A DNA stretch of 52,656 nucleotides from a virus (Duplodnaviria > Caudoviricetes). Location: the IMG/VR virus record IMGVR_UViG_3300049893_002244, positions 1 through 52,656 of that record. One strand, given 5' to 3'. Shown here one piece after another: positions 607 to 32,183 of the stretch (its first letter is position 1; every line of letters starts with the position of its first letter). The notes beneath the pieces were generated by a model that was not told the DNA's origin, ran no database searches, and saw only the letters and a program-made list of their open reading frames with translations. The position numbers and the translations under genes are program-made.

Positions 607-958
607 ATCCCACGGGAAGTGTCAAGTGTAAAAACGGAATGCCTTATGTGGCAACGAGTTGTGCAATGTTATAAGTTGTGAATAACTAACAGGTTGCCAA
701 ATTGTAAAAAATTATAATCGCCCACGAATAATCTGGACATTTTATAAAAAGTGTGCTATACTACTTGAGTCAGGGGGAGTCAAAAATTTCGAGGCATATG
801 TGCAGCCTCCGGTCCCCCACTCTAGGAGTTTCATCTCCGCAACTAGTATCTTCGGAATCGAGTCCTACTCTTTACTATGCATACAGTGTGATGCATTTAT
901 TATAAAAAGTCGAGCATATTCTTTAACTTTTTTCAACCCGCGCAAGTAGTTATATCTC

Positions 959-1141
959 ATGAGCCTCGGACAATCCTACACATCTGAAAACGCTGGCCAA
1001 CTGCGTTCTGCCCTAAACGGATTCAACGACGAGACGCCAATCAAGATAGTGTTCATCAACCCAGTCACGTCTCTCCCAGAAGAACGAGTTGTGACATTCA
1101 CAGTTGAGAGCACTGGTCTGGTGATAGATGTTTCTAGTTGA
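959..1141 (+). CDS. hypothetical protein
   Basis: ORF preceded by TAGTTATA late-type motif; TGA stop lies inside the next TTGAC. Confidence 0.7.
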   Translation: MSLGQSYTSENAGQLRSALNGFNDETPIKIVFINPVTSLPEERVVTFTVESTGLVIDVSS

Positions 1142-1174
1142 CTTTTGATATTTTCCAACCAAGTTGGTTGGACA

Positions 1175-1354
1175 ATGAAGACCATATCCTATGAAGGACG
1201 GCGATACCAAATCGCCTTCATTTTTGGTAACCAAGTCGTCGTTGAACTTCCTCCGACCAAGCGCTGGAGTCAATATGGACGTATGCCCATTCCTTTCAGT
1301 AGCCTCACGAAGCGTCAGCGCATCGCTCTGCGCAAGCTACAAGCCACTGTATGA
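1175..1354 (+). CDS. hypothetical protein
   Basis: Near-leaderless ATG after promoter at 1138. Confidence 0.7.
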   Translation: MKTISYEGRRYQIAFIFGNQVVVELPPTKRWSQYGRMPIPFSSLTKRQRIALRKLQATV

Positions 1355-1587
1355 AAACCAAAACTATCGAATACCACACTTGGATGGTCGTCGCCAAGCT
1401 TATGGACGGCACCACATATTGTTATGGTCACGGCGAGGGTGTTCCCAAGAAGAAAGCCGCCACGCTGTTTGACCGTGTTGTGGCCTTGTCTCCGAAAGGA
1501 ACAAAGGTGAACCTCGTTCATACAGTCAAAACGGAAACGGTCACCACCAACTTGGAAAAAATCACGAAGTCTTCTATCACGGTATGA
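1351..1587 (+). CDS. hypothetical protein
   Basis: ATGA overlap with previous ORF. Confidence 0.7.
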   Translation: MKTKTIEYHTWMVVAKLMDGTTYCYGHGEGVPKKKAATLFDRVVALSPKGTKVNLVHTVKTETVTTNLEKITKSSITV

Positions 1588-1716
1588 ACCCGTCCGAGTC
1601 CATCCAGAGAGTAAATGAGCAGAAGCTCAAGAATTTTGGCACGTAAAGAACGTTCTATACGAACGATTGAAAAAATTGACTTTTTATAAAAAGTCTTCAA
1701 GCTACTCATCATTCAA

Positions 1717-1839
1717 ATGAAGACCATCGACGCAATTGAACAGAACGAGGAATCCCTCGACACTATTCTCCCGCTGGACACAGATGCCGAGCTTGCAGAG
1801 CACTTTGGTATTTTCGTGCCCGCAGATGAGACTTCTTGA
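1717..1839 (+). CDS. small acidic peptide (40 aa)
   Basis: MKTIDAIEQNEESLDTILPLDTDAELAEHFGIFVPADETS, downstream of promoter 1676; below the ORF-track cutoff. Confidence 0.65.
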   Translation: MKTIDAIEQNEESLDTILPLDTDAELAEHFGIFVPADETS

Positions 1840-1869
1840 TATTGTTTAACCGCTAACCAAAATACCACC

Positions 1870-2361
1870 ATGCCCAATCATTGTGACTCCGACCTGATTG
1901 TATCAGGCGACCCGAAGCTCCTTGACGAGATTCTCGCCAAGTTTTTCAACGAAGAGGGAGAACTCAACTGCGATGCCGTGATTCCATATCCCGACAAGTT
2001 CAAGCGGCTCGATGAAGCTGCAAAGAAGTGGGATGACGAAAAGAAGGGTTGGGAAGGCCGTCCGAAGGATGGTTTCAACTCTGGCGGCTACGAGTGGTGC
2101 TGCAACAACTGGGGAACCAAGTGGGGCACATATGACGGCTCTGGCGTCGAGCGCAAGCCTCGCAGCTTCAGCGTTCGCTTCAACAGCGCGTGGGCTCCTC
2201 CGACTCCGGTGGTGAACAAGCTGGCGGAAATGTATCCGACCATCAAGTTCTCCCTCGACGGCTACGAGCAGGGTGCGGCATATCACTACATCGGTCGCTG
2301 GGAGAACGGTGTGCAGACCCGTGATGAGGAACTCAGCTATCGCGGTGGACGTGGTGGTTGA
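1870..2361 (+). CDS. DUF1281/YubB ferredoxin-like family protein
   Basis: MPNHC start, WCxxNWGTKW and FxSAWAPP motifs. Confidence 0.8.
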   Translation: MPNHCDSDLIVSGDPKLLDEILAKFFNEEGELNCDAVIPYPDKFKRLDEAAKKWDDEKKGWEGRPKDGFNSGGYEWCCNNWGTKWGTYDGSGVERKPRSFSVRFNSAWAPPTPVVNKLAEMYPTIKFSLDGYEQGAAYHYIGRWENGVQTRDEELSYRGGRGG

Positions 2362-2398
2362 GCTTGACTTTTCATAAAAAGTCGCCACTGTTGACGAC

Positions 2399-3793
2399 AT
2401 GCTAACCGATACCACCGGTCTTCTGCGTCCACAGATTCCGCACGCCAATACGCTGCTGCGTTCACTCGTTGAAAACGGTTTCGCTCTGGATATGAGCGAA
2501 ACCGGCACGGGCAAGAGCTATGCATCTGCGGCCATCGCCCGGGAACATCGTGGACCCGTCGTCCTCATTTCCCCAAAGGCAGTTATTCCGCAGTGGCTCA
2601 AGGTGCTGATGAAGTTCGGCGTCAAGCCTCTCGTGATTGTAAACTACGAGAAGATTGGACGTGGCAACACTCCTTGGATGAAGTGGAAGAAGCTGCCCGA
2701 CCCGATGAAGCCGTGGAAGGAAGGCGAGGTTGTGGAAATGCCTTTCTTCAAGTTTCCTGCCAACGCTCTGGTCATTCTTGACGAAGGCCATCGCTGCAAG
2801 GGCAATGACACCACCAATGCGTGGATGCTCATCGCGCTCAAGCGTCAGGGATACAAGGTGCTCGTGGCCTCTGCTACTCTCGCGACTACTCCGATGGAAA
2901 TGCGCGCCAGTGGATATCTCAGCGGTCTCCACGCGCTCTACAATTTCAGCGACTTCTGCCGCGTGCATGGTGCTGCGGACGTGGGTCGATATGGTGCTCT
3001 GTCTTGGAATGCGGACAATCCCGAAGCCAAGAAGGCCATGATGCTGCTCAACCAGTATCTCTTTGAAACCAGCAAGTGCGCATCTCGTATGCGCGTGGAA
3101 GACTTTGGAGACCTGTTTCCCGAGAGCCATATCGTGGCCGAGGCATATGACCTTGGTGCGAATTCCAGCAAGGTGCAGGAGGCTTACGAGGAAATGGAGC
3201 GCGAAATCGCCAAGCTGGAAAAGCGCTGTGAGAACTACAGCGAACACATCTTCGCCATCATGATGGCTGCACGTCGCAAGAGCGAACTCCTCAAGGTTCC
3301 TCTCTTTGCGGAAATGGTGGAAGACCTCTTCGACGAAGGCAAGAGCGTTTGCATCTTCCTCAACTTCGAAGACAGCATCGATGCCCTGCGTTCACGTCTC
3401 GTGAAGACGAAGAAGTTCGACAAGCTCATTGGATACATCGTCGGCGGCCAGAACGCTGAGACCCGGCAGAAGCATATCGATGAGTTCAATGCGGACCAGC
3501 GCCGGGTGATGCTCTGCAATATTAAGGCGGGCGGCATCGGTGTGAGCCTTCACGACCTCAACGGCAATTTTCCACGTGCTAGCATCGTGAGCCCGAACTT
3601 CAGCGCTTTCGAACTGGTGCAAGCCCTCGGTCGTGTCTGGCGTCAGGGTGGTTTGACCAAGTCCTATCAGAACATCGTGTTCGCAGCTGGCACAATTGAG
3701 GAGCAAGCTTGCCGACGTGTGCAGGCTCGCATCGACAACCTGTCTACGCTGAACGATGCCGACCTTCGCGAAGGCATTCAGATTTTCGGTTAG
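2399..3793 (+). CDS. superfamily 2 (SNF2/DEAH-like) helicase
   Basis: Motif I ETGTGKS, II DEGH, III SAT, VI QALGRVWRQG. Confidence 0.9.
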   Translation: MLTDTTGLLRPQIPHANTLLRSLVENGFALDMSETGTGKSYASAAIAREHRGPVVLISPKAVIPQWLKVLMKFGVKPLVIVNYEKIGRGNTPWMKWKKLPDPMKPWKEGEVVEMPFFKFPANALVILDEGHRCKGNDTTNAWMLIALKRQGYKVLVASATLATTPMEMRASGYLSGLHALYNFSDFCRVHGAADVGRYGALSWNADNPEAKKAMMLLNQYLFETSKCASRMRVEDFGDLFPESHIVAEAYDLGANSSKVQEAYEEMEREIAKLEKRCENYSEHIFAIMMAARRKSELLKVPLFAEMVEDLFDEGKSVCIFLNFEDSIDALRSRLVKTKKFDKLIGYIVGGQNAETRQKHIDEFNADQRRVMLCNIKAGGIGVSLHDLNGNFPRASIVSPNFSAFELVQALGRVWRQGGLTKSYQNIVFAAGTIEEQACRRVQARIDNLSTLNDADLREGIQIFG

Positions 3794-3880
3794 CCATAAA
3801 GTCCTCCGGGTGTGAGTGGTATCCACCCGGAGGCAAATCTTTCTTGACTTTTTATAAAAATCCATCAACCTGAAAGCACT

Positions 3881-4732
3881 ATGGGACTCGACATTTATCT
3901 TTACCGCTACGACAAGAGCCGTGCGGAAATCGAAAAGGAAGACGCTGCTTGGGAGAAAGTTTCCAGCGAAATTTTCCACAAGCATTTTGACCCCGTTGAA
4001 CAGGCTCGGGGCAAGGACGCCAATCTGACCGAAGCCGAGCGCGAAGCGTGGAAGAAGGAACAGAACCGCGCCGCTGAAGAGTTCGGTCGTGTTGGGGAGT
4101 GGCACGACAATCCCCACAAGCCGAAAATCGAAATCGACTCCGCGCTCTATCCTGAACATATGTTCAAGATTGGCTATTTCTGCTCGTCCTACAACGGCGG
4201 CGGCATCAACAACATTCTCAGCGACCGCATCGGGCAAGACCTTTACAGCGTCATCGGTCTTGACCACAACGAGTATGTCCAGCAACCCGACTGGAACAAG
4301 GTCATCGAAAATTGCGACCTTGCCATCGCCAAGTTCCGCGAAGTGGTCGCGAAGAATCCTTTCAGCTACATCGAGGTTTCTCCGAATATGTTCACGAATC
4401 CTTCGGAGCTTCCCAAGAACGGAGAAGAGGCACTCGAACTCGCTCGCACGACCATCGTGGACCGCAAGCCGTGCGAAATCATGGACGACGGTTTCAGCAA
4501 CCGTGACGGTAGCTGGTATCCGAAGGGTCTCAAGGTCTATGGCATCGTCCCCGGTGTCAATACCCTTTTCGGCAAGGCCCATCCCACGACCTACGTCATC
4601 GTTCGCTGAGAAAAGGATGGCGAGGAACCGTTCAAGTGGTATGTCAATGCCCTTGAAATCGTGAAGGAGACCGCTCAGTGGGTGCTCAAGCAAGAGAACC
4701 CTGAGAAGTATTATCTTCACGTGTCTGGCTGA
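3881..4732 (+). pseudogene. MGLD-type phage protein interrupted by an in-frame TGA at 4607-4609 (nonsense allele, error or readthrough)
   Basis: Frame continues 40 codons past the TGA (EKDGEEPFKWY...KYYLHVSG) to a stop just before the next promoter. Confidence 0.7.
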
Positions 4733-4773
4733 ACCAGCTTGACTTTTCTTAAAAAAACTCAATCATCATCACC

Positions 4774-4977
4774 ATGAACAAGACTCCCTACTTCATTCGC
4801 AACGAGAATGGAACGTTCACGTTCCTCGGCTACTTCACCAACCTCGCTGATGCGCAGGTTGCGCATCTCGGTCTCGGTGACGCCACCGTGGTCGATGCGT
4901 CGTTCCTCTACCGCACCATCGACGCGGCTAAGGACGCCCTGAACAACATGCCGCTGCCGGAAGGCTGCACCAAGTAA
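4774..4977 (+). CDS. hypothetical protein
   Basis: Leaderless ATG 35 nt after TTGAC 4739. Confidence 0.75.
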   Translation: MNKTPYFIRNENGTFTFLGYFTNLADAQVAHLGLGDATVVDASFLYRTIDAAKDALNNMPLPEGCTK

Positions 4978-4978
4978 C

Positions 4979-5488
4979 ATGGGCTACACAACCGAGTTCA
5001 CTGGGCGGTTTGAACTGGACCGTCCTCTCTCCGAGGCTCACGCCGCGTATCTCAATCAGTTTTCTGAGACGCGCCGCATGAAGCGCAACGCTGCGCTCAC
5101 CGAGGCTCGCCCCGACCCCCTTCGCATCGCCGCTGGTCTCCCGGTCGGTAAGCAAGGTGCCTACTTCGTGAACGAAGATGGCTTCGCTGGTCAGGGCAAT
5201 GGTCCCGATGTGCTCGACCACAATCTTCCGCCGAAGGGCCAGCCCGGTCTTTGGTGTCAGTGGGTTCCTTCTGCCGACCGCTCTGCTATTGAGTGGAACG
5301 GTGGCGAGAAGTTTTACTACTACACCGAATGGCTCGAATACATCATCGAGCACTTCCTCAAACCGTGGGGCTATGTGCTGAACGGTGAGGTGGCGTGGGA
5401 TGGTGAGGACCGAGGTGACATTGGCAAGATTGTTGTTGACAACAATTCTGTCAAGGCGCTGAATGGGCGTATCACTTATGGCGACTAA
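4979..5488 (+). CDS. conserved phage hypothetical protein (MGYTT...WCQW...GGEKFY type)
   Basis: ORF with motif pattern recurrent in phage proteins. Confidence 0.8.
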   Translation: MGYTTEFTGRFELDRPLSEAHAAYLNQFSETRRMKRNAALTEARPDPLRIAAGLPVGKQGAYFVNEDGFAGQGNGPDVLDHNLPPKGQPGLWCQWVPSADRSAIEWNGGEKFYYYTEWLEYIIEHFLKPWGYVLNGEVAWDGEDRGDIGKIVVDNNSVKALNGRITYGD

Positions 5489-5744
5489 CGCCTCCAAAAT
5501 CCTGTTCATCAACAAAGCCGGTCAGTCCTCGTTGGTAACAAACTGCGAGTTCTTCGACGGCACCGATGATGAATTAAAGAAGTTCGTTCTTGACACGCTT
5601 AATCTGCTTGGCAAGTCGGCTCATGCATTAATCAAGCGGGGCGACAAGTTTTTTGTTGTTGACCACACCGCCCGCAAGGGTTTGAGTAAGGTGTATTGGG
5701 AACATGAAACCAAGTATCACCCCTACATGAAGGAACTCGTCTAA
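5478..5744 (+). CDS. hypothetical protein
   Basis: ORF coupled to neighbours. Confidence 0.65.
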   Translation: MATNASKILFINKAGQSSLVTNCEFFDGTDDELKKFVLDTLNLLGKSAHALIKRGDKFFVVDHTARKGLSKVYWEHETKYHPYMKELV

Positions 5745-5959
5745 TGTTCATCGTCTACGGTCAACGCTATCACGCTTACGAGCCTTTCGTTCTGACCAAG
5801 GATATCGCCGGTGTTGGTGAGGCCGGTGATGTTCTGGACGATGGTCAACCGAAGAAGATTATCCTCGGGCGTTGGGATGATGAGAAGATTGCGCAGAACT
5901 TTGCCGCCAATATCAAGGCGAGCGTTCCCAAGCGCAGTTGGAATGTTTGGGTAGAGTGA
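5744..5959 (+). CDS. hypothetical protein
   Basis: TAATG overlap with previous ORF. Confidence 0.7.
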   Translation: MFIVYGQRYHAYEPFVLTKDIAGVGEAGDVLDDGQPKKIILGRWDDEKIAQNFAANIKASVPKRSWNVWVE

Positions 5960-6020
5960 TATAAAAAATGCAGATTTCGTCACTTTTTTGTTGACGGTTG
6001 CATATATATCCGTAAAGTTG

Positions 6021-6248
6021 GTCTTGTTCTTTGAGAGAGTTGTCACGACACACACATAAAAGCACCCCTTTGATGAACCCGTGGTGCGCCAATTTCGCGC
6101 CGCCAGTATAATGCAAACGCTGTAAGAAGTGGAAGCAAGAGTAAGGTGGATGAGAAGAGGTAGAGACGTAATGGAGATAGAGATTCCGTTTGTGAAAATC
6201 ACGGGCTGTGGGTAGAATGGAAAATCAGCGGATTTCTGAAAACAAGAC
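6021..6248 (+). ncRNA. putative ~230-nt non-coding RNA with paired ends
   Basis: Own promoter (TTGACG 5991), boxA-like GTTCTTTGA, terminal complementarity gtcttgtt/aacaagac, no credible ORF. Confidence 0.4.
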
Positions 6249-6375
6249 TTGACTTTTGATAAAAGTGTGCTAGAGTGGTGGCTCAATCAGTTCTTTGAAG
6301 GTCTAAGAGTAAGCTGCTGGGAAATGCCGATGTGCCGTATGGCACACAAAACATCCCGACCTATTACAATTTCAT

Positions 6376-6450
6376 GGCAGGGTAGAGTATGTGGTAACTC
6401 AGCACGCTCATAATGTGCCGCAACGGATTCAAACGCCGTCCCTGCTCCCA
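6376..6450 (+). tRNA. tRNA with CAT anticodon (Met or Ile2)
   Basis: GGCAGGG/CCCTGCT acceptor, GAGT/ACTC D stem, GCACG-CT CAT AA-TGTGC, TTCAAAC T loop with one T-stem mismatch, encoded CCA. Confidence 0.85.
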
Positions 6451-6651
6451 ATTTGGACAACAGTCAAGTAGCGACGTTGGTATTATTCCAGCAAGCAAAC
6501 GTGAGTCCAAATCTGCTACAGAAGATAGTCTCTAGCCATCGGGCTAGTTAATATCATCTCTAGCAACAATTTCCGCCTACCATGTGTAGGAGAGGAGTTT
6601 AGCCTTCGTCCATGTGGCGCAGGCCGTTTTCAGTTCTTTAACAATACAATT

Positions 6652-7445: not shown

Positions 7446-7451
7446 ATCTTT

Positions 7452-7479
7452 AGGCCACTCTTAGCGGAGTGGCTTTTTT
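7452..7479 (+). terminator. intrinsic terminator
   Basis: aggccactc/gagtggctt stem followed by a T tract. Confidence 0.85.
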
Positions 7480-7515
7480 GTTGACTATTTATAATCACCT
7501 GTCAACGTAGGGGAT

Positions 7516-11532: not shown

Positions 11533-11535
11533 TAC

Positions 11536-25874: not shown

Positions 25875-25905
25875 CTTCAATAAAATCTCAATCACTTTAA
25901 TTCCC

Positions 25906-26130
25906 ATGCACGACATACTCACTTCACCCGGCTTCTGGTTTTACAGCGTCATTTGGTTCGCTCTCGTCATGATGTTCACCCCACCTTTCGAGGACTGGAA
26001 CTGGAAGCAAGGCATATTCGCTGGTGTGATTTCTGGCCCGGTTGGATGGGTGCTCGGTAGCATCGTCACAATCCTCTTTGGCATCGCAACTCTTTGGGAT
26101 TTGCTCAAAGACAAACCGAAGAAGTCTTGA
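25906..26130 (+). CDS. Trp-rich membrane protein (paralog of 24944-25165)
   Basis: IWF..TPP..W...GPV.W shared motif. Confidence 0.75.
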   Translation: MHDILTSPGFWFYSVIWFALVMMFTPPFEDWNWKQGIFAGVISGPVGWVLGSIVTILFGIATLWDLLKDKPKKS

Positions 26131-26160
26131 CATTTATAAAATAGAAGTCACTCTAGCGCC

Positions 26161-26655
26161 ATGTCCTTCACTGTTTCTCTGAAGCCTTACTGCCCGAGAA
26201 TCACTCGGAGCAAAATCGCCAAGCTTTCCCACGAACTGCGCGCCGCAATGAATCGTGTGAAATACACGGACAAGACCACGTGGCGTGACGTTGTCAGGAA
26301 GCTCGACCCCTGTTGGAAGTTTGAAATCGTGCGAGCCGCTGGTCTCAGTGGTCACATCGCCATCAGCAAGACTCATGGTATTGTGGTCAAGTGTCCCTAC
26401 AACGCGGACATTGATGCCACGCCCGACCATGCGATTTTCACACGGACTATTCCCCTGAAGCGGCAGAGCTACGCCGACGACAACGAGTATATTTTCATCC
26501 AGCCTCTCGCGGACGTTACCGCCAATGCTCGTAGTCGCGCCTGTGAACTGATTCAGGAAGCGGTCGAGAGCGGTGAAATTGAAAACGCCGCCGATGATGA
26601 CCATGACGGCAACGTGGCAATTTTCTACGGTAAGGCGGTTGCCATCGACTGGTAA
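26161..26655 (+). CDS. minimal protein-kinase-like protein (paralog of 18067-18468)
   Basis: GIVVK, IQPL, DDHDGNVA, terminal IDW. Confidence 0.65.
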   Translation: MSFTVSLKPYCPRITRSKIAKLSHELRAAMNRVKYTDKTTWRDVVRKLDPCWKFEIVRAAGLSGHIAISKTHGIVVKCPYNADIDATPDHAIFTRTIPLKRQSYADDNEYIFIQPLADVTANARSRACELIQEAVESGEIENAADDDHDGNVAIFYGKAVAIDW

Positions 26656-26693
26656 GGCTTGACTTTTATAAATAAGTCGTCACTCTCATCACC

Positions 26694-27014
26694 ATGACCG
26701 ACCCACTTCGCTATCTCATCTCGGAAGGTTTCATCGCGCTGTTCTACTATCCAAACCTTGACCAGTTTGGAAAGTTCTCGGGCAGGTTGCGCACCACCGA
26801 GAACGTGAGAAACTCTGTCAGCATCCTCACGCTCAACGGCAAAAAGTGTATGCGCGTTGGTTTGATGGTCTATCCCATCGACGCCGATTTCTGGCTCGAA
26901 TATGGCGTGCGCTGCACCGATGCGGACGATGCTCTCGCCAAGTCGGAAGCGTGGGCGAAGGAAACGAACGAGCTTTACGAGATTTTCTCGAAGCAGCAGG
27001 AGACTGCATCGTAA
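26694..27014 (+). CDS. hypothetical protein
   Basis: Leaderless after promoter 26659. Confidence 0.75.
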   Translation: MTDPLRYLISEGFIALFYYPNLDQFGKFSGRLRTTENVRNSVSILTLNGKKCMRVGLMVYPIDADFWLEYGVRCTDADDALAKSEAWAKETNELYEIFSKQQETAS

Positions 27015-27063
27015 ATTTCACGTTCCGCTTGACATTTCAAAAAAACTCCAACACTCTATCACC

Positions 27064-27459
27064 ATGAGCAAACAAAGCATCGAAGACATTCTGGCCGACT
27101 ACCAGCGCAACAAGAACAAAGAGAGCAATCTAGCCAAGCTGATTATCTCGCTTTTCGCAGTGCTGCTCACGATTCCGTCGTCTCTCCTGCGCGGCTGGGT
27201 CATCAATCTCTACTGGGGTTGGTTCATCACGTTGATTTTCAACGTGCCTGCGCCGGGCACGCTGCTCTGCACCGCGCTCTACTTCATGTGGAATCTGCCC
27301 AAGGGCGTTTACTACAAGAACGTCGAGGAACTGGAAGAAGCCTCAAATGCCGATGCGGGCGATACCTTCAAGGTGTCCGTGTCGAATGTGGTTCTCAGTG
27401 TGTTGTATTCTCTCTCCGCTGGCTTCTTCGGCTGGATTCTGCATCTGCTCACTTCCTGA
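27064..27459 (+). CDS. membrane protein
   Basis: Leaderless; several TM segments. Confidence 0.75.
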   Translation: MSKQSIEDILADYQRNKNKESNLAKLIISLFAVLLTIPSSLLRGWVINLYWGWFITLIFNVPAPGTLLCTALYFMWNLPKGVYYKNVEELEEASNADAGDTFKVSVSNVVLSVLYSLSAGFFGWILHLLTS

Positions 27460-27463
27460 AAAC

Positions 27464-27640
27464 ATGAACGACTACCACTACTTTCAGCAGCTCGTCTCGT
27501 ATTACAACATCGCTGATGCCATCAACATCATGTTGAACAAACATCCCGAAGCCGAGGTTTTTTCCGTCATCGGTTCATCCAACAACAACGGTGGTCAGGG
27601 CGATGCCATCATCCTCTATCGCAAGCCCATCACTCGGTAA
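27464..27640 (+). CDS. hypothetical protein
   Basis: Small ORF in operon. Confidence 0.6.
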   Translation: MNDYHYFQQLVSYYNIADAINIMLNKHPEAEVFSVIGSSNNNGGQGDAIILYRKPITR

Positions 27641-27646
27641 TTTACC

Positions 27647-27820
27647 ATGAGAGCCAGTCTGTGGTGGGCGGTGGTTCTTCCAAACACCGGCGTTGTTGGT
27701 CAACTTTACGTTACGAAGGGAGCCGCCGACATGAGTTGGGGAAACGTTGATGGTGCAAAGTTCATTCAAGTCAAACTCGTTCCCGTCAAGACCAAGAAGA
27801 AAACCAATCGAAAGTCTTGA
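27647..27820 (+). CDS. hypothetical protein (57 aa)
   Basis: Stop lies in the next TTGAC; below the ORF-track cutoff. Confidence 0.55.
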   Translation: MRASLWWAVVLPNTGVVGQLYVTKGAADMSWGNVDGAKFIQVKLVPVKTKKKTNRKS

Positions 27821-27851
27821 CATTTATAAAAAAACTGTCACTTTGATACCC

Positions 27852-28187
27852 ATGAAAACTTCTGTTGTCATCGATTCGTGTGTCATGGCCGGTCTGAACG
27901 AGATGGACAAGCGTTTCCTCCGCGATTATCAGGAGCTTCGCTGCAACGACATTAGCGCCAATGGCTGTCACCTTACGGTGTATCGCCAATATCATGTTTG
28001 GGATGATGACGCTGGTGATTTCTATCCCGACAACGACGGTTATTATCTCAGCGAAGACACCATTCGTTGCTTCAACAAGAAAGTGACGCCCAAGGAGTTT
28101 TGCGACGACCTCAATCGTCAGATGAACGATTTCTTCGACCGCAATGGCATCGAGGGCGACACCTTCCTCCTTTACGTTTCGTGGTAA
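27852..28187 (+). CDS. acidic hypothetical protein
   Basis: Leaderless after promoter 27817. Confidence 0.75.
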   Translation: MKTSVVIDSCVMAGLNEMDKRFLRDYQELRCNDISANGCHLTVYRQYHVWDDDAGDFYPDNDGYYLSEDTIRCFNKKVTPKEFCDDLNRQMNDFFDRNGIEGDTFLLYVSW

Positions 28188-28230
28188 CGAAGGGCTTGAC
28201 ATTTATAAAAATGTCTGCACACTGGGGACC

Positions 28231-28515
28231 ATGAAGAACAACATTCGCCTTCACTTCGGTCAAGCCATCGCAGTTGAGCCCAAGGCGGTGGGCAAGCCGG
28301 TGGACAGCGGCAATGGCTATTACAGCTACAGCTACTATCTCCTGCCCTACACTGGCACGCTGACCACCGAGGCTGGCGCTGCGGTTCGCCGCCATCTTCA
28401 CAACAAGCACTATCACTATCCGTTCACCAGTCTGAACTGTGTGGAGGTGTTCGGCAGTCAGAACGAAAACAACGGTCTGTTGCTCGTCAGCACGACCTAT
28501 CACCACGGAGACTGA
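28231..28515 (+). CDS. hypothetical protein
   Basis: Leaderless after promoter 28196. Confidence 0.75.
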   Translation: MKNNIRLHFGQAIAVEPKAVGKPVDSGNGYYSYSYYLLPYTGTLTTEAGAAVRRHLHNKHYHYPFTSLNCVEVFGSQNENNGLLLVSTTYHHGD

Positions 28516-28518
28516 GCC

Positions 28519-28734
28519 ATGCCAGCGATTCTTATTCTCCTACTCGCTCTGCGCAACCGGGATGAAAGCGGGCCGTTTTTCCCGCTGCTCGACACCAATC
28601 CTCCGACCAAAACGGAGAAGTTCCTCAACTGGCTGCTCAAGGCTTGGCTTTGGGTTGCTGGGGTGGTTGTCGTGCTCGGTCTGCTGTGGGTCGTGTTTCT
28701 CATCGGCTTTGCAATTTACACTCTCTTCACATGA
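28519..28734 (+). CDS. small membrane protein
   Basis: C-terminal TM segment. Confidence 0.65.
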   Translation: MPAILILLLALRNRDESGPFFPLLDTNPPTKTEKFLNWLLKAWLWVAGVVVVLGLLWVVFLIGFAIYTLFT

Positions 28735-28973
28735 AATTCATTGTCTCAGATTCCAAACGTTGGGGTGCTCGTGGAAACGGTATTCGCTGGGGCATTCTCT
28801 GCACGGACAGTAATGGCACGCAATCACTTTATCAAATTGACCGCTGCCATTTCTACATCGCTGATTACAAGGAGCAGGCTCGCCTGTATCTCATCAAGCT
28901 CGACCCACACATGCGCAAGGCGTGGAAGATGAAAGTTGTCAAGTTGCAGGAAGCATATCATCTTGCGTCTTGA
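28731..28973 (+). CDS. hypothetical protein
   Basis: ATGA overlap; stop lies in the next TTGAC. Confidence 0.7.
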   Translation: MKFIVSDSKRWGARGNGIRWGILCTDSNGTQSLYQIDRCHFYIADYKEQARLYLIKLDPHMRKAWKMKVVKLQEAYHLAS

Positions 28974-29004
28974 CTTTTATAAGAACTTCGTCACTTTAAT
29001 CCAC

Positions 29005-29241
29005 ATGAATCTCATCATCATCCTCGCCGCCATTCTCTTCGTCGTCGCTCTGTTCAACATCAAGAAGATTGGCAGCTTCATCCACGCCTTCACCATCTGG
29101 CCGTGGGAATTGCTTCTCGACAACAAGGCGAGCACTGGTAATGGAGCCGGAATGTTCGGCCCAATCCTCGGTCTGATTCTCGTCGCGGGTCAACTTCTCG
29201 TGGTCATCGTGGGAGTCATCCTCTGGCTGATTTTTGGTTGA
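29005..29241 (+). CDS. small membrane protein
   Basis: Leaderless; two TM segments. Confidence 0.75.
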   Translation: MNLIIILAAILFVVALFNIKKIGSFIHAFTIWPWELLLDNKASTGNGAGMFGPILGLILVAGQLLVVIVGVILWLIFG

Positions 29242-29272
29242 CTTTTATAATAAACCTCTCATTCTTCTCGTC

Positions 29273-29677
29273 ATGGGCTACCTTACCACCATCACCATTC
29301 ACAACGACGCGCTGCACGCTTTCGAGAAGAACCCCGAGCAGTTTGGCAAGGCCATCCTCGAAGGCATCTCCCGTGCCCGCATGGAACGCAAGGCCGTTGA
29401 CGTTGGCTTTGACGGTTACTGCAATTACATCACCGTCGAGCCGAGCCGTCATGCCGATGACCATACTGTGTTCGTTCACACTGGCAACACCGTTTTCAAC
29501 GTGAATCCTTACAACGAGGACTTCCGTGAACTGCTTGCTCGCAGTCCCGAAGTGGCCGCGCAGTTCGTCGGAGTGGCTGACGGAGTGGTGGCAATGGCCA
29601 AAGAGAAGCTCAAGGTGGAAGCCAAGAAGAAGAAGAAGGCTCTCAGCCACCGCGAAGAATTTGGAAGTGGTTCTTGA
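29273..29677 (+). CDS. phage hypothetical protein (MGY.TT....ND...HAD)
   Basis: Leaderless ORF. Confidence 0.8.
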   Translation: MGYLTTITIHNDALHAFEKNPEQFGKAILEGISRARMERKAVDVGFDGYCNYITVEPSRHADDHTVFVHTGNTVFNVNPYNEDFRELLARSPEVAAQFVGVADGVVAMAKEKLKVEAKKKKKALSHREEFGSGS

Positions 29678-29707
29678 CTTTCATAAAAAATCCTCACTCT
29701 TTTCAAC

Positions 29708-29854
29708 ATGAACCCCATCGCATTCGGTATCGGCCTGTTCATCGGCAACACTCTCGGTCAACGCCTGATTGCTCATAAATCGTGGTCCGAGAGCATTGGC
29801 GTTGGAATCCTCTCCGGGTTAATCGGCTGGCTTGTGCTCATCACCATCTCCTAA
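29708..29854 (+). CDS. small membrane peptide (48 aa)
   Basis: Leaderless after promoter 29674. Confidence 0.6.
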   Translation: MNPIAFGIGLFIGNTLGQRLIAHKSWSESIGVGILSGLIGWLVLITIS

Positions 29855-29866
29855 CCAACCAATCTC

Positions 29867-30265
29867 ATGACCACCGCTCAAATTCTTCTTTATAGCTTTT
29901 TCGGATGCGCTTCCACAGCCGCCATCAGCTTTTACTACATCATCACTCGTTCGTGGAGTTGTCCAAACAGTGTGCGCGCCATCGGCGCTGTTTCCGTCGT
30001 CGGCGCGTTCGCGCTGTTCATCGTCTGTCTGGGCCATCCTGTGCGTCATTCGGCAATCAAGCCCACGGACCTTCAAATCACGAAATCTCGTGACATGGTG
30101 CTAATTCAAGGTGTTGTGGACGGCCAGACGTTCGTTGAAACAAACACCAGTGCATTCTTTTTCAATCACGTTGACGACTCTGCCTACGAGGTTATTCATG
30201 AAACAGAGGCTTCGGCGTTTGGTTTGACCACCGCCCGCCGCTACGTTCTTCGCAAGAAGGCTTGA
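29867..30265 (+). CDS. membrane protein
   Basis: Two N-terminal TM segments. Confidence 0.7.
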   Translation: MTTAQILLYSFFGCASTAAISFYYIITRSWSCPNSVRAIGAVSVVGAFALFIVCLGHPVRHSAIKPTDLQITKSRDMVLIQGVVDGQTFVETNTSAFFFNHVDDSAYEVIHETEASAFGLTTARRYVLRKKA

Positions 30266-30296
30266 CTTTTATAATAATTGAGTCACTCTCTCATCC

Positions 30297-30581
30297 ATGA
30301 AGACACTCATCGCCTCCCTCAAGAAGTTCTGCATTCGCCACTTCACCCCGAGTAAGTGGGAAACGGTGTATGCCGCTCGCTGCTCCACCCGCGCCATCTG
30401 GATGTTTGAGGATTATGGTCGCGTGTCAGCCGTGGTCAAGATTCAAGTGGAGCGCCGCAAGAACCTCGCTCGCGGCATCATCGAGGCAATGGGCGATGCA
30501 TCAACTTGCTCTCTCGCTGAGATTGTTCTCGGCAACCTCGAAGCGCAGCGCGTTTGTGCCCGCGAGAACATTTCGATTTGA
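30297..30581 (+). CDS. hypothetical protein
   Basis: Leaderless; stop lies in the next TTGAC. Confidence 0.75.
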   Translation: MKTLIASLKKFCIRHFTPSKWETVYAARCSTRAIWMFEDYGRVSAVVKIQVERRKNLARGIIEAMGDASTCSLAEIVLGNLEAQRVCARENISI

Positions 30582-30612
30582 CTTTTATAAAAAAGTCCTC
30601 ACTCTACCTGTC

Positions 30613-30957
30613 ATGAATCTTCCCCCCGCCGTCGATGTTCTCCGCAAGCAAATCGAAGCTGCTCGCGACCGCAGCCTCGCAAAGCCCCGCAAGGCGGCTG
30701 ATGGCACCATCGAGCGACTGAACGTCCACCTCACCGCTCTGCTGGCGAATCCCGAGAAGTTTACCTCGCACACCACTTTCAGCGAAGAGATGCCTGCGAA
30801 CGCATATCACGGCGGCTCTTACGCTGCTTTTCTCGACGCTCTGCGAGCCAAGCTCACTCCGCTCGGTTATCGGGTGGAACAGTCCCATGACGGCGGCGGG
30901 CAGTATTCCACTGTGGTCATTCGCTGGGATTTGGAGAAGACCGTTCGCCGTTTCTGA
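30613..30957 (+). CDS. hypothetical protein
   Basis: Leaderless after promoter 30578. Confidence 0.75.
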   Translation: MNLPPAVDVLRKQIEAARDRSLAKPRKAADGTIERLNVHLTALLANPEKFTSHTTFSEEMPANAYHGGSYAAFLDALRAKLTPLGYRVEQSHDGGGQYSTVVIRWDLEKTVRRF

Positions 30958-30967
30958 AATTTTCACC

Positions 30968-31129
30968 ATGAACTCACTACAATTGCTCGGTCTCACGGTC
31001 GGCACGGTCGGCATTCTTCTCAACGCCTCGGGTTATATCATCTATCGCGGGAAGGGGTTTCTCATCGGCCTTGCGCTGGGCGTGATTGGAACGGGGATGA
31101 CTCTCTTGAGCATCTTCTCTTCGACTTGA
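30968..31129 (+). CDS. small membrane protein
   Basis: Two TM segments; stop lies in the next TTGAC. Confidence 0.65.
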   Translation: MNSLQLLGLTVGTVGILLNASGYIIYRGKGFLIGLALGVIGTGMTLLSIFSST

Positions 31130-31160
31130 CTTTTATAAGAAAGCCGTCAGGCTCTCAGCC

Positions 31161-31352
31161 ATGTTCAAGAATCTCTCCAAGCGCAAAATCAAGATGACCG
31201 TCACGCTCAAGTCGGGCAAGACCGTCACCTTTGCTTGTTCCAACTTCGTCATCGAGAAGAACGGCAATGATATCGTCAGCCTGAAGGTTGAGGATTGCCC
31301 CGAGTATTTTTATATTCGACTTGACGAAATCGCTCTCATCATCAAGTCATGA
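31161..31352 (+). CDS. hypothetical protein
   Basis: Leaderless after promoter 31126. Confidence 0.7.
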   Translation: MFKNLSKRKIKMTVTLKSGKTVTFACSNFVIEKNGNDIVSLKVEDCPEYFYIRLDEIALIIKS

Positions 31353-31786
31353 TGACCATCACACACCCCAAGCACTTCAAATGGTTGCGCTTGGTGCTGT
31401 CGTCACTCAAGGCGTTCGATTACACGGAAGGCGACTATCCCAGTCGCATCGACCCGAACGCCAGCAAAACAGATGGTGCTGAATACGTTACGCCAAACGT
31501 CGTTCACAAGCTGACCTTCACCGACGCGGGGGTTTTCTACAGAAGCGTTGATGAGCGACTTGGCTGGGTCATTGTCAAGGAATACACCTTCACCATGTTG
31601 CCCAAGGGCAAGGTCAAGGAGGAAAAGGTTGAACATCAATACTTCCGCTCCCAAGAGTGGATTGACAAGGCGAAGGCCGACTTCGAGCAGTATCTCATCA
31701 ACAACCCCAACATGAGAGAATGGGGCGAGAACGCTCGTAAAAATCAAACATACGAACTTCTTCCGCTTGACTTTTATAATAATTAA
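31349..31786 (+). CDS. hypothetical protein
   Basis: ATGA overlap with previous ORF. Confidence 0.75.
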   Translation: MMTITHPKHFKWLRLVLSSLKAFDYTEGDYPSRIDPNASKTDGAEYVTPNVVHKLTFTDAGVFYRSVDERLGWVIVKEYTFTMLPKGKVKEEKVEHQYFRSQEWIDKAKADFEQYLINNPNMREWGENARKNQTYELLPLDFYNN

Positions 31787-31801
31787 GTCACTCTCTCAAA
31801 T

Positions 31802-31984
31802 ATGAAATTCCTTGGCGTCAACATCGACTTCAACAAGAACTACTCGGAAACCGAGCTTGAAGAGCTTGAGGAACAGCTTGACGCGGCCTTTGGCCGCTTC
31901 GTTCGTCGGCTGCTGCGCTTCATGTTCCTCCTCATCGTGCTCGCCGTGCTGGTGAAGTTTGGATATCAACTCTGTCATGGTTGA
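31802..31984 (+). CDS. small membrane protein
   Basis: Leaderless; acidic N-terminus plus TM segment. Confidence 0.7.
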   Translation: MKFLGVNIDFNKNYSETELEELEEQLDAAFGRFVRRLLRFMFLLIVLAVLVKFGYQLCHG

Positions 31985-32183
31985 GTATTACAAATATCCC
32001 GGTGACGGATATAACAACTGGAAGGTTATTGTCCGGTTGATGGATGGAACATATGCTGGCACGACGAGGGTATATCCTTCCGGCCTGCTGCTCGACCCAC
32101 TGACAACCTACTGGCGCGAGGCTGACCCTGCTTGGGGCAAACCCATCAGCTTGGAAGAGGCAGTAGCTCTTACTGCCCGCTAA
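31977..32183 (+). CDS. hypothetical protein
   Basis: Last ORF of the array. Confidence 0.65.
   Translation: MVEYYKYPGDGYNNWKVIVRLMDGTYAGTTRVYPSGLLLDPLTTYWREADPAWGKPISLEEAVALTAR

Follow-up and report, generated by a model that had tools for sequence, protein, structure and literature searches.

The array described here is probably best understood as a hyperplastic early region, with promoters that behave like pared-down, leaderless forms of the PeSL elements of T4-type phages, and not as an integron analogue. It occupies positions 1138..32183 (+) of a fragment (CheckV completeness 59%) from a large uncultured freshwater phage; the whole 52,656 nt of this fragment are referred to as the window. 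The 81 called genes of the array are of early type, with a median length of 87 aa, and lie on the + strand together with 48 promoter-like elements, which over the 31 kb amounts to one roughly every 0.65 kb. Only two paralogue pairs occur within the array, and a Pfam scan of 70 array proteins returned only six families with one member each. In the best reading, which as a whole explanation we regard as likely, these are small, mostly orphan genes, about 81 of them arranged in about 48 short transcription units.

The repeated element and its conservation

At 41 sites on the + strand the consensus cTTGACWTTTATAAAAA-N5-tGtCAcTnT-N7-ATG opens an ORF of at least 35 codons. The rule defining these sites (TTGAC followed by 11 nt of which 8 or more are A/T, with an ATG 32-39 nt downstream that opens a frame of 35 or more codons) returned 41 on the + and 0 on the - strand, and a mean of 0.2 and a maximum of 2 in 100 Markov-1 random sequences. 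The pattern written down in the first-pass annotation, with at most one mismatch, gave 20 matches (19 +, 1 -) versus 0.11 in shuffles. Hand curation yielded 50 promoter-like sites, 48 of them at 1138-31767 and the other two at 38864 and 51261, which bears out the earlier estimate of about 50 copies on one strand.

Counted from the first T of TTGAC, the ATG stands at 35 in 30 of the 41 sites, at 34 in six, at 36 in one and at 37 in four, and at +34 to +37 in 42 of the 50 curated sites. Among the 30 offset-35 sites the -10 hexamer falls at positions 22-27, leaving a 16-nt spacer, and reads C (28/30), A (27/30), c, T (23/30), n, T (27/30), with A-11 and T-7 thus each retained in 27/30; a G at position 20 (G-14; 21/30) fits a TG extension, and C precedes TTGAC in 23/30 and the ATG in 21/30. 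The 16-nt spacing, the usual ATG distance of 35 nt and the C that opens the -10 had all been recognized at first pass; the spacer TTTATAAAAA, described there as being as conserved as the -35, is nearly so, with 0.7-1.8 bits per position versus 2 bits for TTGAC. Judged by its letters, the element would be a strong sigma-70-type promoter, its perfect -35 separated by a 16-nt spacer from a TG-extended -10 in which C stands for T at -12. The -35, again with a -10 at 16 nt, also lies upstream of tRNA-Met and a GOLLD-like RNA (6249) and of tRNA-Thr/Glu (11413), and since these genes need no translation signal, the element is better read as a promoter than as a signal for translation. An upstream hairpin accompanies only a minority of elements, and terminators between units are few. 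Degraded or slipped copies, TTGAC-like and offset by 6 nt, are also present. The putative promoters are as follows (ATG offsets from the first T of TTGAC):

1138..1177 (+), promoter element, ATG +37; TGA closes 63-codon upstream frame
1676..1703 (+), promoter element, first ATG +41 after a short leader
2364..2401 (+), promoter element, ATG +35, helicase gene; TTGAGC before it (TTGAC-like copy at 6-nt offset, in-frame TGA)
3844..3883 (+), promoter element, ATG +37; 1.5-kb insertion here in G001, flanked by two promoter copies
4739..4776 (+), promoter element, ATG +35
6249..6276 (+), promoter element TTGACT-16-TAGAGT, TG-extended; no ATG; upstream of tRNA-Met and GOLLD-like RNA
7481..7518 (+), promoter element, ATG +35; T-run of terminator 7452-7475 enters its TTGAC
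7741..7778 (+), promoter element, ATG +35
8324..8351 (+), promoter-like element, ATG +52; TGA closes ORF 8190-8327
9182..9219 (+), promoter element, ATG +35, RNA ligase gene; terminator 9151-9177 directly upstream
10700..10737 (+), promoter element, ATG +35; TGA closes 125-codon frame
11413..11440 (+), promoter-like site TTGACG-16-CATAGT upstream of tRNA-Thr and tRNA-Glu
12217..12244 (+), promoter element, no ATG at +35; then ORF-poor conserved stretch to about 12850
13294..13331 (+), promoter element, ATG +35; TGA closes 171-codon frame
13791..13828 (+), promoter element, ATG +35; 6-nt offset TTGACC copy before it; fused directly to the gene 13998 homologue in G001
13961..14000 (+), weaker site TTGACA-18-AAGAAT, ATG +37
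14675..14712 (+), promoter element, ATG +35; TGA closes 237-codon frame; left arm of chimeric G001 promoter
15151..15187 (+), promoter element, ATG +34; right arm of chimeric G001 promoter; terminator 15128-15153 overlaps
16016..16053 (+), promoter element, ATG +35; TGA closes 218-codon frame
16444..16481 (+), promoter element, ATG +35
17071..17108 (+), promoter element, ATG +35
17653..17680 (+), promoter element; about 33 nt of CA-rich leader, then ATG 17721
18478..18516 (+), promoter element, ATG +36
19071..19108 (+), promoter element, ATG +35
20040..20077 (+), promoter element, ATG +35; TGA closes 177-codon open frame, gene call ambiguous
20591..20628 (+), promoter element, ATG +35; TGA closes 174-codon frame
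21510..21546 (+), promoter element, ATG +34; TGA closes 356-codon frame; left edge of module replaced in G001
21915..21951 (+), promoter element, ATG +34; TTAACC, a 6-nt offset copy, before it
22206..22233 (+), promoter-like element, then hairpin and T-run, then ATG +52
22497..22536 (+), promoter element, ATG +37; TGA closes 96-codon frame
22722..22749 (+), promoter element, no ATG at +35 (leadered); TGA closes ORF 22534-22725; right edge of module replaced in G001
23349..23386 (+), promoter element, ATG +35; TGA closes 89-codon frame
23862..23898 (+), promoter element, ATG +34
24668..24705 (+), promoter element, ATG +35; identical run CACTTTAATTGACATGAAG common to the 25172 element
25172..25209 (+), promoter element, ATG +35
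25871..25908 (+), promoter element, ATG +35; TGA closes 173-codon frame
26127..26163 (+), promoter element, ATG +34; TGA closes 96-codon frame
26659..26696 (+), promoter element, ATG +35
27029..27066 (+), promoter element, ATG +35
27817..27854 (+), promoter element, ATG +35; left edge of cassette 27816-28194, missing from X2-run contig
28196..28233 (+), promoter element, ATG +35; right edge of cassette 27816-28194
28970..29007 (+), promoter element, ATG +35; TGA closes 135-codon frame
29238..29275 (+), promoter element, ATG +35; TGA closes 102-codon frame
29674..29710 (+), promoter element, ATG +34; TGA closes 148-codon frame
30262..30299 (+), promoter element, ATG +35; TGA closes 136-codon frame
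30578..30615 (+), promoter element, ATG +35; TGA closes 99-codon frame
31126..31163 (+), promoter element, ATG +35; TGA closes 135-codon frame
31767..31804 (+), promoter element, ATG +35; upstream gene reads through the -35 to TAA at +17
38864..38903 (+), outlying element copy in late-type region, ATG +37
51261..51298 (+), outlying degenerate copy, ATG +35

This architecture is conserved across the clade, being found in at least eight related IMG/VR contigs that span a GC content of 38-50%, one of them a complete genome of 297 kb that carries a T4-type capsid gene. G001 has 42 sites (25 at +35) and L121 (G002), L043, L014, L098, L070, L092 and L106 have 6-15 each, always on one strand. Only 44 of the 81 array genes have a G001 homologue, though the common DNA is 70-90% identical. 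Given that the array proteins shared with G002/G003 are only 41-66% identical and the box is nevertheless kept, spacer included, the box is under constraint. The nearest cultured capsid relatives (Microcystis phage Mel-JY01, Flavobacterium phage immuto and Rhodothermus RM378) gave 0-1 matches to TTGACWTTNNTAA, no more than the reversed-pattern control. The lineage of the window itself probably has a T4-type capsid, an indirect link made through G002 by the motif, a G/C-rich element and seven array genes in common.

Probable leaderless starts and shared stop codons

None of the 41 promoter-led genes is preceded by an SD-like 4-mer, and 11 of 63 non-promoter-led genes are, versus a background of 11%. 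The geometry of the element would place +1 on the A of the start codon (C-ATG, 7 nt after the -10), giving a leaderless mRNA translated without an SD, and downstream genes of a unit would be translationally coupled through ATGA, TAATG or TAACATG junctions. In Deinococcus the -10 motif is described as typically lying about 6-7 bp before leaderless ORFs (PMC12340547), and the corresponding distance in the array is 7 nt. Geometry and analogy together suggest that the mRNAs are leaderless, with the TSS at the ATG, and that the genes are expressed early.

Late-type boxes, TATA-rich and without a -35 (TATTTATA or TATATATA), lie upstream of structural-type genes, 6-10 nt before the ATG at 33085, 34664, 36007 and 42100. 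These boxes look leaderless too.

When the upstream stop was assigned mechanically, as that of the longest frame ending within -90 to +20 of a site, the TGA of TTGAC ended the upstream frame at 18 of 40 sites. Three further sites (8324, 22722 and 24668) share it under alternative gene calls, and at all 14 example coordinates from the first pass a TTGAC supplies the TGA that ends a long upstream frame, in agreement with the roughly 20 cases reported there. The proposal that the element serves as a stop supplier fares less evenly, for 18/40 is not significantly above the one-third frame chance (P 0.08) and G001, with 16/41, is not above it either (P 0.27), whereas the upstream frame relative to TTGAC is significantly biased (26/10/4, P 6e-5), as it is in the other relatives pooled with L014 left out (34/15/10, P 3e-4). 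Intergenic space would have shrunk to the promoter itself, so that the upstream gene would often end on the TGA within TTGAC. The most plausible reading is that compaction produced the sharing as a by-product, since only that frame stops a promoter-entering gene at once.

Breakpoints and rival explanations

Block ends were taken as the limits of blastn HSPs between the array and an about 80% identical relative and are approximate only. Promoter elements, 7.9% of the array by length, hold 20 of the 60 (P 2e-8), 17 fall at non-promoter gene boundaries and 23 elsewhere; 15 of 30 junctions have at least one end in a promoter element and five have both. At three junctions (3844, 14675/15151 and 21510/22722) the promoter is chimeric, with the crossover inside cTTGACWTTTATAA and different flanks on each side. 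In an X2-run contig, about 96% identical, 27815 is joined directly to 28195, so that exactly one promoter-to-promoter cassette is removed, and a second X2-run contig has 13628-13996 replaced by a 37-nt promoter-like insert. The promoters at 13791 and 24668 are joined at the ATG to different genes in the array and in G001.

We infer that the box itself takes part in these events: about 17 nt of -35/AT sequence in about 48 direct-orientation copies would serve as recombination homology, through which modules of a -10 plus its gene or genes would be deleted, inserted or swapped, as for the PeSL of T4-type phages, and other events would join at the ATG or at ordinary gene boundaries. It is possible, if rather unlikely, that the promoters are real and leaderless but have no mechanistic part in recombination, only whole-unit indels surviving and the chimeras reflecting ordinary short-homology or illegitimate recombination. 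Given that the ends divide 20 to 17 between promoters and other boundaries much as gene starts do (39 promoter-led, 40 other), much of the coincidence is accounted for by selection for whole genes, which alone could place many breakpoints at promoters; several joints, moreover, lie at ATG microhomologies and not in the box (13791/13998 and 24668/25419). However, the three chimeras cross over precisely within a common box of 14-17 nt, these direct repeats are the longest homologies available in the array, and mini-circles arising from PeSL repeats were demonstrated experimentally for RB49/phi1 (PMC2839356). The suggestion that breakpoints fall in the motif is upheld for a third of the ends and the chimeras, and limited by the 17 ends at other boundaries. 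The broader picture of promoter, stop supplier and recombination homology in one element keeps its promoter anatomy, frequent TGA stop and breakpoints, and is weakened by the stop count and by whole-gene selection.

The promoters are probably read by the host primary-sigma holoenzyme, although promoters of that class do not typically have a C at -12. Were the host a member of the Bacteroidota, promoters of the TTGAC/-10 type would not be expected to be recognized by its sigma. It can also be speculated, as an improbable alternative, that the 16-nt box TTGACWTTTATAAAAA is bound, as the MotA box of T4 middle promoters is, by an activator or sigma-appropriator that the phage encodes or the virion delivers, in which case the array would be middle-class rather than immediate-early and the C at -12 (28/30) would reflect a remodelled RNA polymerase. 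Conservation in the A/T half of the spacer comes close to that of the -35 and persists in relatives with such divergent array proteins, more than a sigma-70 model requires, and T4-type phages are described as using boxes of this kind (the PmSLs of nt-1). Yet TTGAC is a perfect primary-sigma -35, A-11, T-7 and the TG extension are standard, and the array shows no second class of promoters from which such a factor could be expressed beforehand. MotA C-terminal domain and AsiA homologues were not found in G000, G001 and G002 in searches that lacked a positive control, sigma-70 region 2 was not found in G000, G001, G002 (complete), G003 and G005 with 10 of 14 control genomes positive, and a gp55 homologue was not identified in what is a weak test.

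Still more doubtful is a dedicated integron-like capture system, in which the element evolved as promoter, stop and recombination site, any DNA between two copies is expressed, and exchange through the motif builds the array. The chimeric promoters, the five junctions with both ends in elements, the cassette missing from the X2-run contig, the promoters fused to different genes, the unrelatedness of the cassette genes and the bias toward the TGA frame all speak for it. Nevertheless, a search for tyrosine integrases in G000, G001 and the complete G002 found none (14/14 controls positive), attC-like sites are absent and each cassette has its own promoter. Breakpoints are nearly as frequent at other gene boundaries, about half of the genes (40/79 starts) are not promoter-led, stop sharing does not exceed frame chance, and inserted DNA would still need an ATG exactly at +1. 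The first-pass label of an integron-like gene-capture array was overstated, and adds nothing beyond the shuffling already covered by the published PeSL model. Very improbable, finally, is an RNA-level signal, with the box acting in long polycistronic RNAs as an A/U-rich, SD-independent translation enhancer or processing site 35 nt before the ATG, since the missing SD, the A/U-rich box at fixed distance and the scarce terminators that would suit it are outweighed by conserved letters that match a -35/-10 at sigma-70 spacing and not an unstructured A/U tract, by the same box before tRNA and GOLLD-like RNA genes, and by internal coupled genes without it.

Relation to known systems

In T4, long conserved early promoters are read by the host polymerase, and the mRNAs are leadered with an SD. 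The window is similar in its long conserved early promoters and its TATA-rich late-type boxes without a -35, and differs in its SD-free starts and in that the weak tests for gp55, MotA and AsiA identified no homologue. The Thermus phage phiYS40 reportedly has leaderless middle and late genes, whereas in the array the early-type class would be leaderless. Integron cassette arrays share with it unrelated small genes on one strand, a repeated element between them and cassette-wise gain and loss; unlike them, the array has no integrase, attI or attC, its cassettes carry their own promoters instead of sharing a Pc, and exchange presumably proceeds by general homologous recombination.

Leaderless genes of Deinococcus-Thermus, as described in PMC12340547, likewise have a TANNNT-like -10 at 6-7 nt before the start codon and no SD, so that the promoter defines the translation start; relative to that description, the array adds a perfect -35 and a conserved spacer, and its -10 begins with C. 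The GC content of 38-51% argues against a Deinococcus-Thermus host.

The closest parallel is the T4-type PeSL (Arbiol et al. 2010, PMC2839356; Comeau et al. 2014, PMC4122927). In these accounts, as in the array, many conserved sigma-70-like early promoters lie among small orphan genes in hyperplastic regions, are located at insertions, deletions and replacements between close relatives, include degraded or slipped copies, and would recombine in their AT-rich/-35 part; PeSL phages are T4-type, and the array lineage probably has a T4-type capsid as well. The PeSL carries an upstream stem-loop terminator and ends in a Shine-Dalgarno and start codon, according to the Fig. 3 legend, whereas in the array a hairpin is a minority feature, SD motifs are lacking and the ATG would lie at +1. 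Also unlike the PeSL, the upstream stop often lies inside the -35, and the elements are packed at the density given above throughout the 31 kb.

Probable promoter element, start codons and shared stops

The first-pass annotation had described about 50 copies of one element on one strand, with 16 nt between -35 and -10 and an ATG usually at +35 from the first T of TTGAC, and this description holds. Its pattern, searched with at most one mismatch, gave 20 matches (19 on the + strand, 1 on the - strand) against 0.11 in shuffled sequences. A mechanical rule asked for TTGAC followed by 11 nt of which 8 or more are A/T, and for an ATG 32-39 nt downstream as the first codon of a frame of at least 35 codons. 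It returned 41 sites on + and 0 on -, against a mean of 0.2 and a maximum of 2 in 100 Markov-1 random sequences. The ATG lies at +35 in 30 of these sites, at +34 in six, at +36 in one and at +37 in four. A curated list holds 50 promoter-like sites, 48 within 1138-31767 and two outliers at 38864 and 51261; 42 of the 50 have the ATG at +34 to +37. The exceptions are:

6249 (+): TTGACT-16-TAGAGT, TG-extended, upstream of tRNA-Met and a GOLLD-like RNA
11413 (+): TTGACG-16-CATAGT, upstream of tRNA-Thr and tRNA-Glu
12217 (+): upstream of an ORF-poor conserved stretch
1676, 8324, 17653, 22206 and 22722 (+): leaders of about 6-33 nt

Because this -35 box also stands before tRNA and non-coding RNA genes, the element would be a DNA-level promoter and not an RNA-level translation signal.

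The 30 offset-35 sites give the consensus cTTGAC(T/A)TTTATAAAAA-N5-(t)G-T-C-A-c-T-n-T-N6-C-ATG-A-A, in which the invariance of TTGAC is a product of site selection. TTGAC is preceded by C in 23/30 sites, position 6 of the -35 is T in 22/30 and A in 8/30, and G20 (G-14), found in 21/30, provides a TG extension. The -10 hexamer is marked by C22 (28/30), A23 (27/30) and T27 (27/30), the base before the ATG is C in 21/30, and the first two letters of codon 2 are each A in 20/30. In primary-sigma promoters, A-11 and T-7 are flipped out and read by sigma; both are present here in 27/30 sites behind a 16-nt spacer, but position -12 is C, not T, in 28/30. Read against this model, the element would combine a perfect -35, a 16-nt spacer, a TG extension at -15/-14 and a -10 with C at -12. 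Some copies form sub-families (24668-24705 with 25172-25209, and 20040 with 20591) that share identical runs beyond the consensus, such as CACTTTAATTGACATGAAG, and these runs suggest that entire promoter-plus-ATG modules have been copied or gene-converted.

In 30 of the 41 sites the -10 ends 7 nt before the ATG; in the remainder the distance is 6-9 nt. Since the gap is 7 nt and the preceding base mostly C, transcription would begin with a favoured pyrimidine(-1)/purine(+1) step on the A of the ATG. The distance rule resembles that of Deinococcus-Thermus leaderless genes, for which the available text of one report describes a TANNNT motif some 6-7 bp upstream of the ORF (PMC12340547). The element is very likely a promoter with a leaderless start, the AUG itself being a requirement of the search rule and not an independent test of leaderlessness. 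An SD-like 4-mer at -18 to -4 occurs in 0/41 promoter-led genes and in 11/63 other genes, a background rate (given as 11%), so that translation appears SD-independent throughout the system. Gene junctions within units take the forms ATGA, TAATG and TAACATG, which suggests SD-free termination-reinitiation coupling. The arrangement TAAC-ATG (stop, one C, start) is recurrent, for example at 4977/4979, 13634/13639, 15529, 19906/19908, 20200/20202, 24246, 41267/41269 and 49440/49442.

Sigma-70 region 2 was absent from the window and four relatives (one of them complete), and control genomes were positive in 10/14 cases; since none is encoded there, the simplest inference is that the host's primary sigma would read the elements. 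Searches for MotCF and AsiA gave no match in the window, G001 or G002, nor in the controls. We do not assign the protein at 36022-36891 as a sigma factor, its Sigma70_r4_2 match being sub-threshold (E 0.004) and a PDB sequence match being absent. The earlier proposal of a factor that reads the spacer box is speculation.

The first-pass annotation also held that the TGA of TTGAC serves as the stop of the upstream gene, and its 14 examples were all verified as such stops (14/14). If the upstream gene is taken to be the longest frame whose end lies between -90 and +20 relative to TTGAC, this stop is used at 18/40 window sites (P 0.08), a count that alone is not significant because one third is expected by frame chance. 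The corresponding values are 16/41 in G001, a relative about 80% identical (P 0.27), and 29/59 in six other relatives pooled (P 0.009). Upstream genes are significantly skewed in their frame with respect to the box, with 26 in the TGA frame versus 10 and 4 in the window (P 6e-5) and 34/15/10 in the other relatives. Eight TGA-frame genes end slightly earlier than TTGAC, and three of them stop at a TGA or TAA inside a TTGAC-like copy offset by 6 nt:

2364 (+): TTGAGC-TTGAC
13791 (+): TTGACC-TTGAC
21915 (+): TTAACC-TTGAC

These copies look like slipped duplications of the box. By direct reading, cTTGACTTTTATAAAAA contains a stop only in the TGA-containing frame, which also reaches TAA. A compaction ratchet could operate here, in which deletions that abut a gene on the next promoter would be tolerated only where the invariant TGA stops translation at once. 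We regard the sharing of stops as real, compaction being its best explanation.

Gene content, late-type boxes and non-coding RNA candidates

The window is a linear virus contig of 52,656 bp, 59% complete by CheckV, whose plausible genes all lie on the + strand. It had no counterpart in INPHARED by megablast with 10 kb and 5.3 kb of its sequence. One public run of a freshwater sediment metagenome contains the sequence and may be where it came from, and a relative occurs in a second aquatic run. For window 20000-29999, DNA contigs but no RNA run were listed. The half of run X1, the possible source, that was examined yielded only 10 pieces, short and matching poorly. Three tRNA genes are present, and the principal protein genes are:

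2399-3793 (+): SF2 helicase
9217-10359 (+): T4-type RNA ligase
33833-34663 (+): methyltransferase
41269-42036 (+): PhoH
42118-47401 (+): two paralogous large proteins with an InlB-B-repeat-like domain
47480-50461 (+): three glycosyltransferases

The two paralogues (42118-44361 and 44396-47401, +) are adjacent, share 43% identity over 424 aa and each contain a divergent InlB B-repeat (Flg_new_2)-like region; they are likely fibre or adhesin-type proteins. A third copy of this domain is found at 36894-38687. In protein comparisons with cultured relatives, the helicase found matches of at most 33% identity, and PhoH found only matches of about 30-37% from many hosts, which are uninformative. A scan of genome contigs with the GlcNAc-transferase gave one 40% match, on a Vicinamibacterales MAG contig, which was not taken as a host signal because the motif is absent from its 7-kb locus. 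The ESM Atlas, consulted for the host, returned viral clusters only, and the psbA family is absent from G002, a complete 297-kb relative.

The array (1138-32183) consists mostly of orphan genes, as 6 Pfam families with one member each were found in the 70 of 81 proteins scanned; the 11 left out are the helicase, the RNA ligase and nine ORFs that are short (40-58 aa), overlap RNA genes or lie at the contig start. The single-member matches include NaeI restriction endonuclease (E 2e-36), HNH endonuclease, DUF1281_C, DUF6225 and ArfA (E 3e-5), and PHROG matches include phosphoribosyl transferase and endonuclease VII. A motif of ArfA (alternative ribosome-rescue factor A) was not found by text match in the array proteins; the ArfA-like match, if true, would be of interest for a phage relying on unusual translation.

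The larger genes beyond 33 kb lack the TTGAC box upstream and are preceded by another type of sequence:

33085, 34664, 36007, 40043, 42100, 44378 and 47466 (+): TATA-rich octamers (TATTTATA, TATATATA and similar), 6-10 nt before the ATG

Those that precede the genes at 40061, 44396 and 47480 are of the similar kind. The octamers, which we take to resemble the T4 late-promoter box, are accompanied by neither a -35 nor an SD, and would give near-leaderless RNAs as well.

Several stretches are candidates for non-coding functions. GOLLD RNA (RF02032) gave a near-threshold match at 7045-7438 (+), with 140.3 bits against a gathering threshold of 150 (E 8e-39) and covering the full model (1-416). It lies in the ORF-poor region 6450-7480, after tRNA-Met and downstream of the promoter at 6249, and ends at a terminator (7452-7475); it is 85.6% identical to G001, above the neighbouring genes, and parts are kept in two further related contigs (L070 and L092). 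The promoter element in the stretch 12217-12850 (+) lacks an ATG at +35 and is followed by about 630 nt that hold no convincing ORF and are 78.7% identical to G001. Rfam gave no credible match to this stretch, which may be a further non-coding RNA or very small genes. The array ends in an element of about 160 nt rich in G-runs and C-runs (about 32185-32345, +), with TCTAGGTGGGG repeated twice, that retains 76-81% nucleotide identity in G001-G005 though these genomes range from 38 to 50% GC. RNAalifold folds it into two long GC helices (-57 kcal/mol) with compensatory changes in 5/47 pairs, and a conserved TCAATTTTT...ACTTTTCATATATAC lies downstream. An array-end terminator, an ncRNA and a DNA site are the candidates for this element.

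Relatives and recombination breakpoints

Relatives were found by scanning IMG/VR with one 17-mer version of the box. Among the matches listed, many contigs have single matches and a handful have clusters, and these clustered contigs show the full architecture, on one strand in every case.

Table. Promoter arrays in related contigs
G001 (63 kb): 42 sites; ATG at +35 in 25; TGA stops 16
L121 (part of G002): 12 sites; ATG at +35 in 9; TGA stops 5
L043 (G003): 11 sites; ATG at +35 in 7; TGA stops 7
L014 (G004): 10 sites; ATG at +35 in 6; TGA stops 5
L098 (G005): 6 sites; ATG at +35 in 3; TGA stops 5
L070 (G006): 12 sites; ATG at +35 in 7; TGA stops 3
L092: 15 sites; ATG at +35 in 4; TGA stops 6
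L106: 6 sites; ATG at +35 in 6; TGA stops 3

L014 and L098 are near-identical by appearance, and the clustered contigs span 38% to 50% GC. Because the array proteins that the window shares with G002 and G003 are only 41-66% identical, the conservation of the box, including its A/T spacer, reflects function and goes beyond recent copying. The complete 297-kb G002 encodes a Gp23-family capsid protein (E 1e-77). It has the motif, the G/C-rich element and 7 array genes in common with the window, in which no capsid gene was found. The nearest cultured relatives of this capsid are those of Microcystis phage Mel-JY01 (58.6%), Flavobacterium phage immuto (55%) and Rhodothermus phage RM378 (38%); TTGACWTTNNTAA has 0-1 matches in these three genomes, no more than a reversed-pattern control. 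The capsid evidence comes via G002, so that the window lineage is linked to a T4-type virion indirectly.

G001 is collinear with the window, with alignable DNA 70-90% identical, and has homologues of 44 of the 81 array genes, one adjacent pair being order-swapped. Growth of the array by tandem gene duplication was rejected, with just 2 weak paralogue pairs among the 81 genes. The methyltransferase gene (33833-34663) distinguishes the window from G001 by clean presence/absence, with homology blocks that abut at 33843 and 34643, outside the promoter array. Upstream of the G001 array (L116, G001 1-16300) lie an HNH homing endonuclease gene and genes of NAD salvage, one for nicotinamide phosphoribosyltransferase (E 1e-156) and one for a cytidylyltransferase/NUDIX fusion; the window begins just past this region.

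Breakpoints were taken from blastn blocks against G001, giving 30 junctions, or 60 ends, inside the array, and the promoter zone was set at -12 to +40 of TTGAC (7.9% of the array). The first-pass annotation had predicted that gene gain and loss would break inside the motif. This is borne out insofar as 20/60 ends fall in the promoter zone (binomial P 2e-8), three promoters are chimeric and one whole cassette is missing from a third genome; 15/30 junctions have at least one end in the zone and 5/30 have both. Of the other ends, 17 lie at most 12 nt from other gene boundaries and 23 elsewhere. A preference for promoters over other gene boundaries is not evident in the 60-end count. Breakpoints favour gene boundaries generally, with 17 ends at other boundaries against 20 at promoters, where 39 gene starts are promoter-led and 40 are not.

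Individual junctions give direct evidence. At 14675/15151, G001 has a single promoter whose upstream flank matches one window promoter and whose -10 and gene match the following one, and at 3844 a 1.5-kb G001 insertion lies between two promoter copies, each of which keeps one of the window's flanks. A whole module is replaced at 21510/22722, where the left homology ends after cTTGACATTTATAAAAA and the right resumes at the next box. The promoters at 13791 and 24668 are each joined, at the ATG, to one gene in the window and to another in G001, and gene 25419 is translationally coupled in the window and promoter-led in G001. The third genome, seen in run X2 contigs that match at about 96% identity in the pieces concerned, joins 27815 straight to 28195, so that exactly one promoter-to-promoter cassette is missing, and elsewhere replaces 13628-13996 by a 37-nt promoter-like sequence. 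From these alignments, we consider a recombination role of the element demonstrated for a few junctions and plausible for more.

Comparison with known systems

A wider reading, which we offer as tentative and on balance doubtful, is that large freshwater phages of a whole clade, the 297-kb T4-type genome among them, use a portable all-in-one module of about 38 nt to express their accessory genomes. The module would comprise the preceding gene's stop, an extended -35/spacer box, an unusual -10 with C-12 and a start codon at +1, with no ribosome-binding site; recombination in the box and at the ATG would let any ORF plug in for immediate expression, and the spacer box may be read by a phage or host factor. 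If true, this would be the first T4-type lineage based on leaderless translation and a natural minimal expression-and-shuffling cassette. If 5' ends confirm the leaderless starts, about 40 promoters in 31 kb would form the densest known leaderless promoter set in a phage. They would also be evidence that a T4-type lineage can dispense with ribosome-binding sites for early-type and probably late-type genes, which would inform on the host's translation. The module could offer a compact natural design for the expression of arbitrary ORFs, and in metagenomes the motif is of practical use for detecting phages of this clade and correcting their annotated gene starts.

Full-text literature searches with four variants of the box string returned only unrelated matches (plant, sea urchin, mouse), and searches for leaderless early promoters in T4-type or jumbo phages returned no prior description within freely accessible main texts. 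The first-pass suggestion of integron-like capture fares poorly. The tyrosine recombinase family PF00589, to which IntI would belong, is absent from the window's own record, G001 and the complete G002, with controls positive in 14/14 cases, and integron cassettes are promoterless, carry attC sites and are expressed from a single Pc, whereas every unit here has its own promoter. The array is not an integron, and describing it as an integron-like capture system is speculation.

The promoter-early stem-loop (PeSL) elements of T4-type phages are closer. In the available text of two reports, PeSLs are composite early-promoter elements concentrated in hyperplastic regions; they occur where close relatives differ by indels, their AT-rich part is where they recombine, and they form mini-circles detected by inverse PCR (PMC4122927; PMC2839356). 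The portions available of one of these reports add a stem-loop terminator and a 3' end made of an SD plus start codon (PMC4122927). The present element differs in both respects: a clear hairpin ending at TTGAC was found in about 4/24 listed elements within window 1-20000 (2332, 7452, 9151 and 15128), and 0/41 sites have an SD, with the ATG at +1. Unlike in PeSLs, the preceding stop here often lies inside the -35, and the upstream ORF runs into the -35 at 18 sites. The likenesses are a repeated early-type promoter in a hyperplastic region beside orphan genes, and indels or replacements between close relatives that end in or beside the element. Its behaviour matches the PeSL model, and it would be a leaderless, minimal PeSL-like element found clade-wide. 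The PeSL idea, of promoters as recombination joints that shuffle orphan genes, would extend to a new lineage in which the element is reduced to a minimum and overlaps the neighbouring gene's stop codon.
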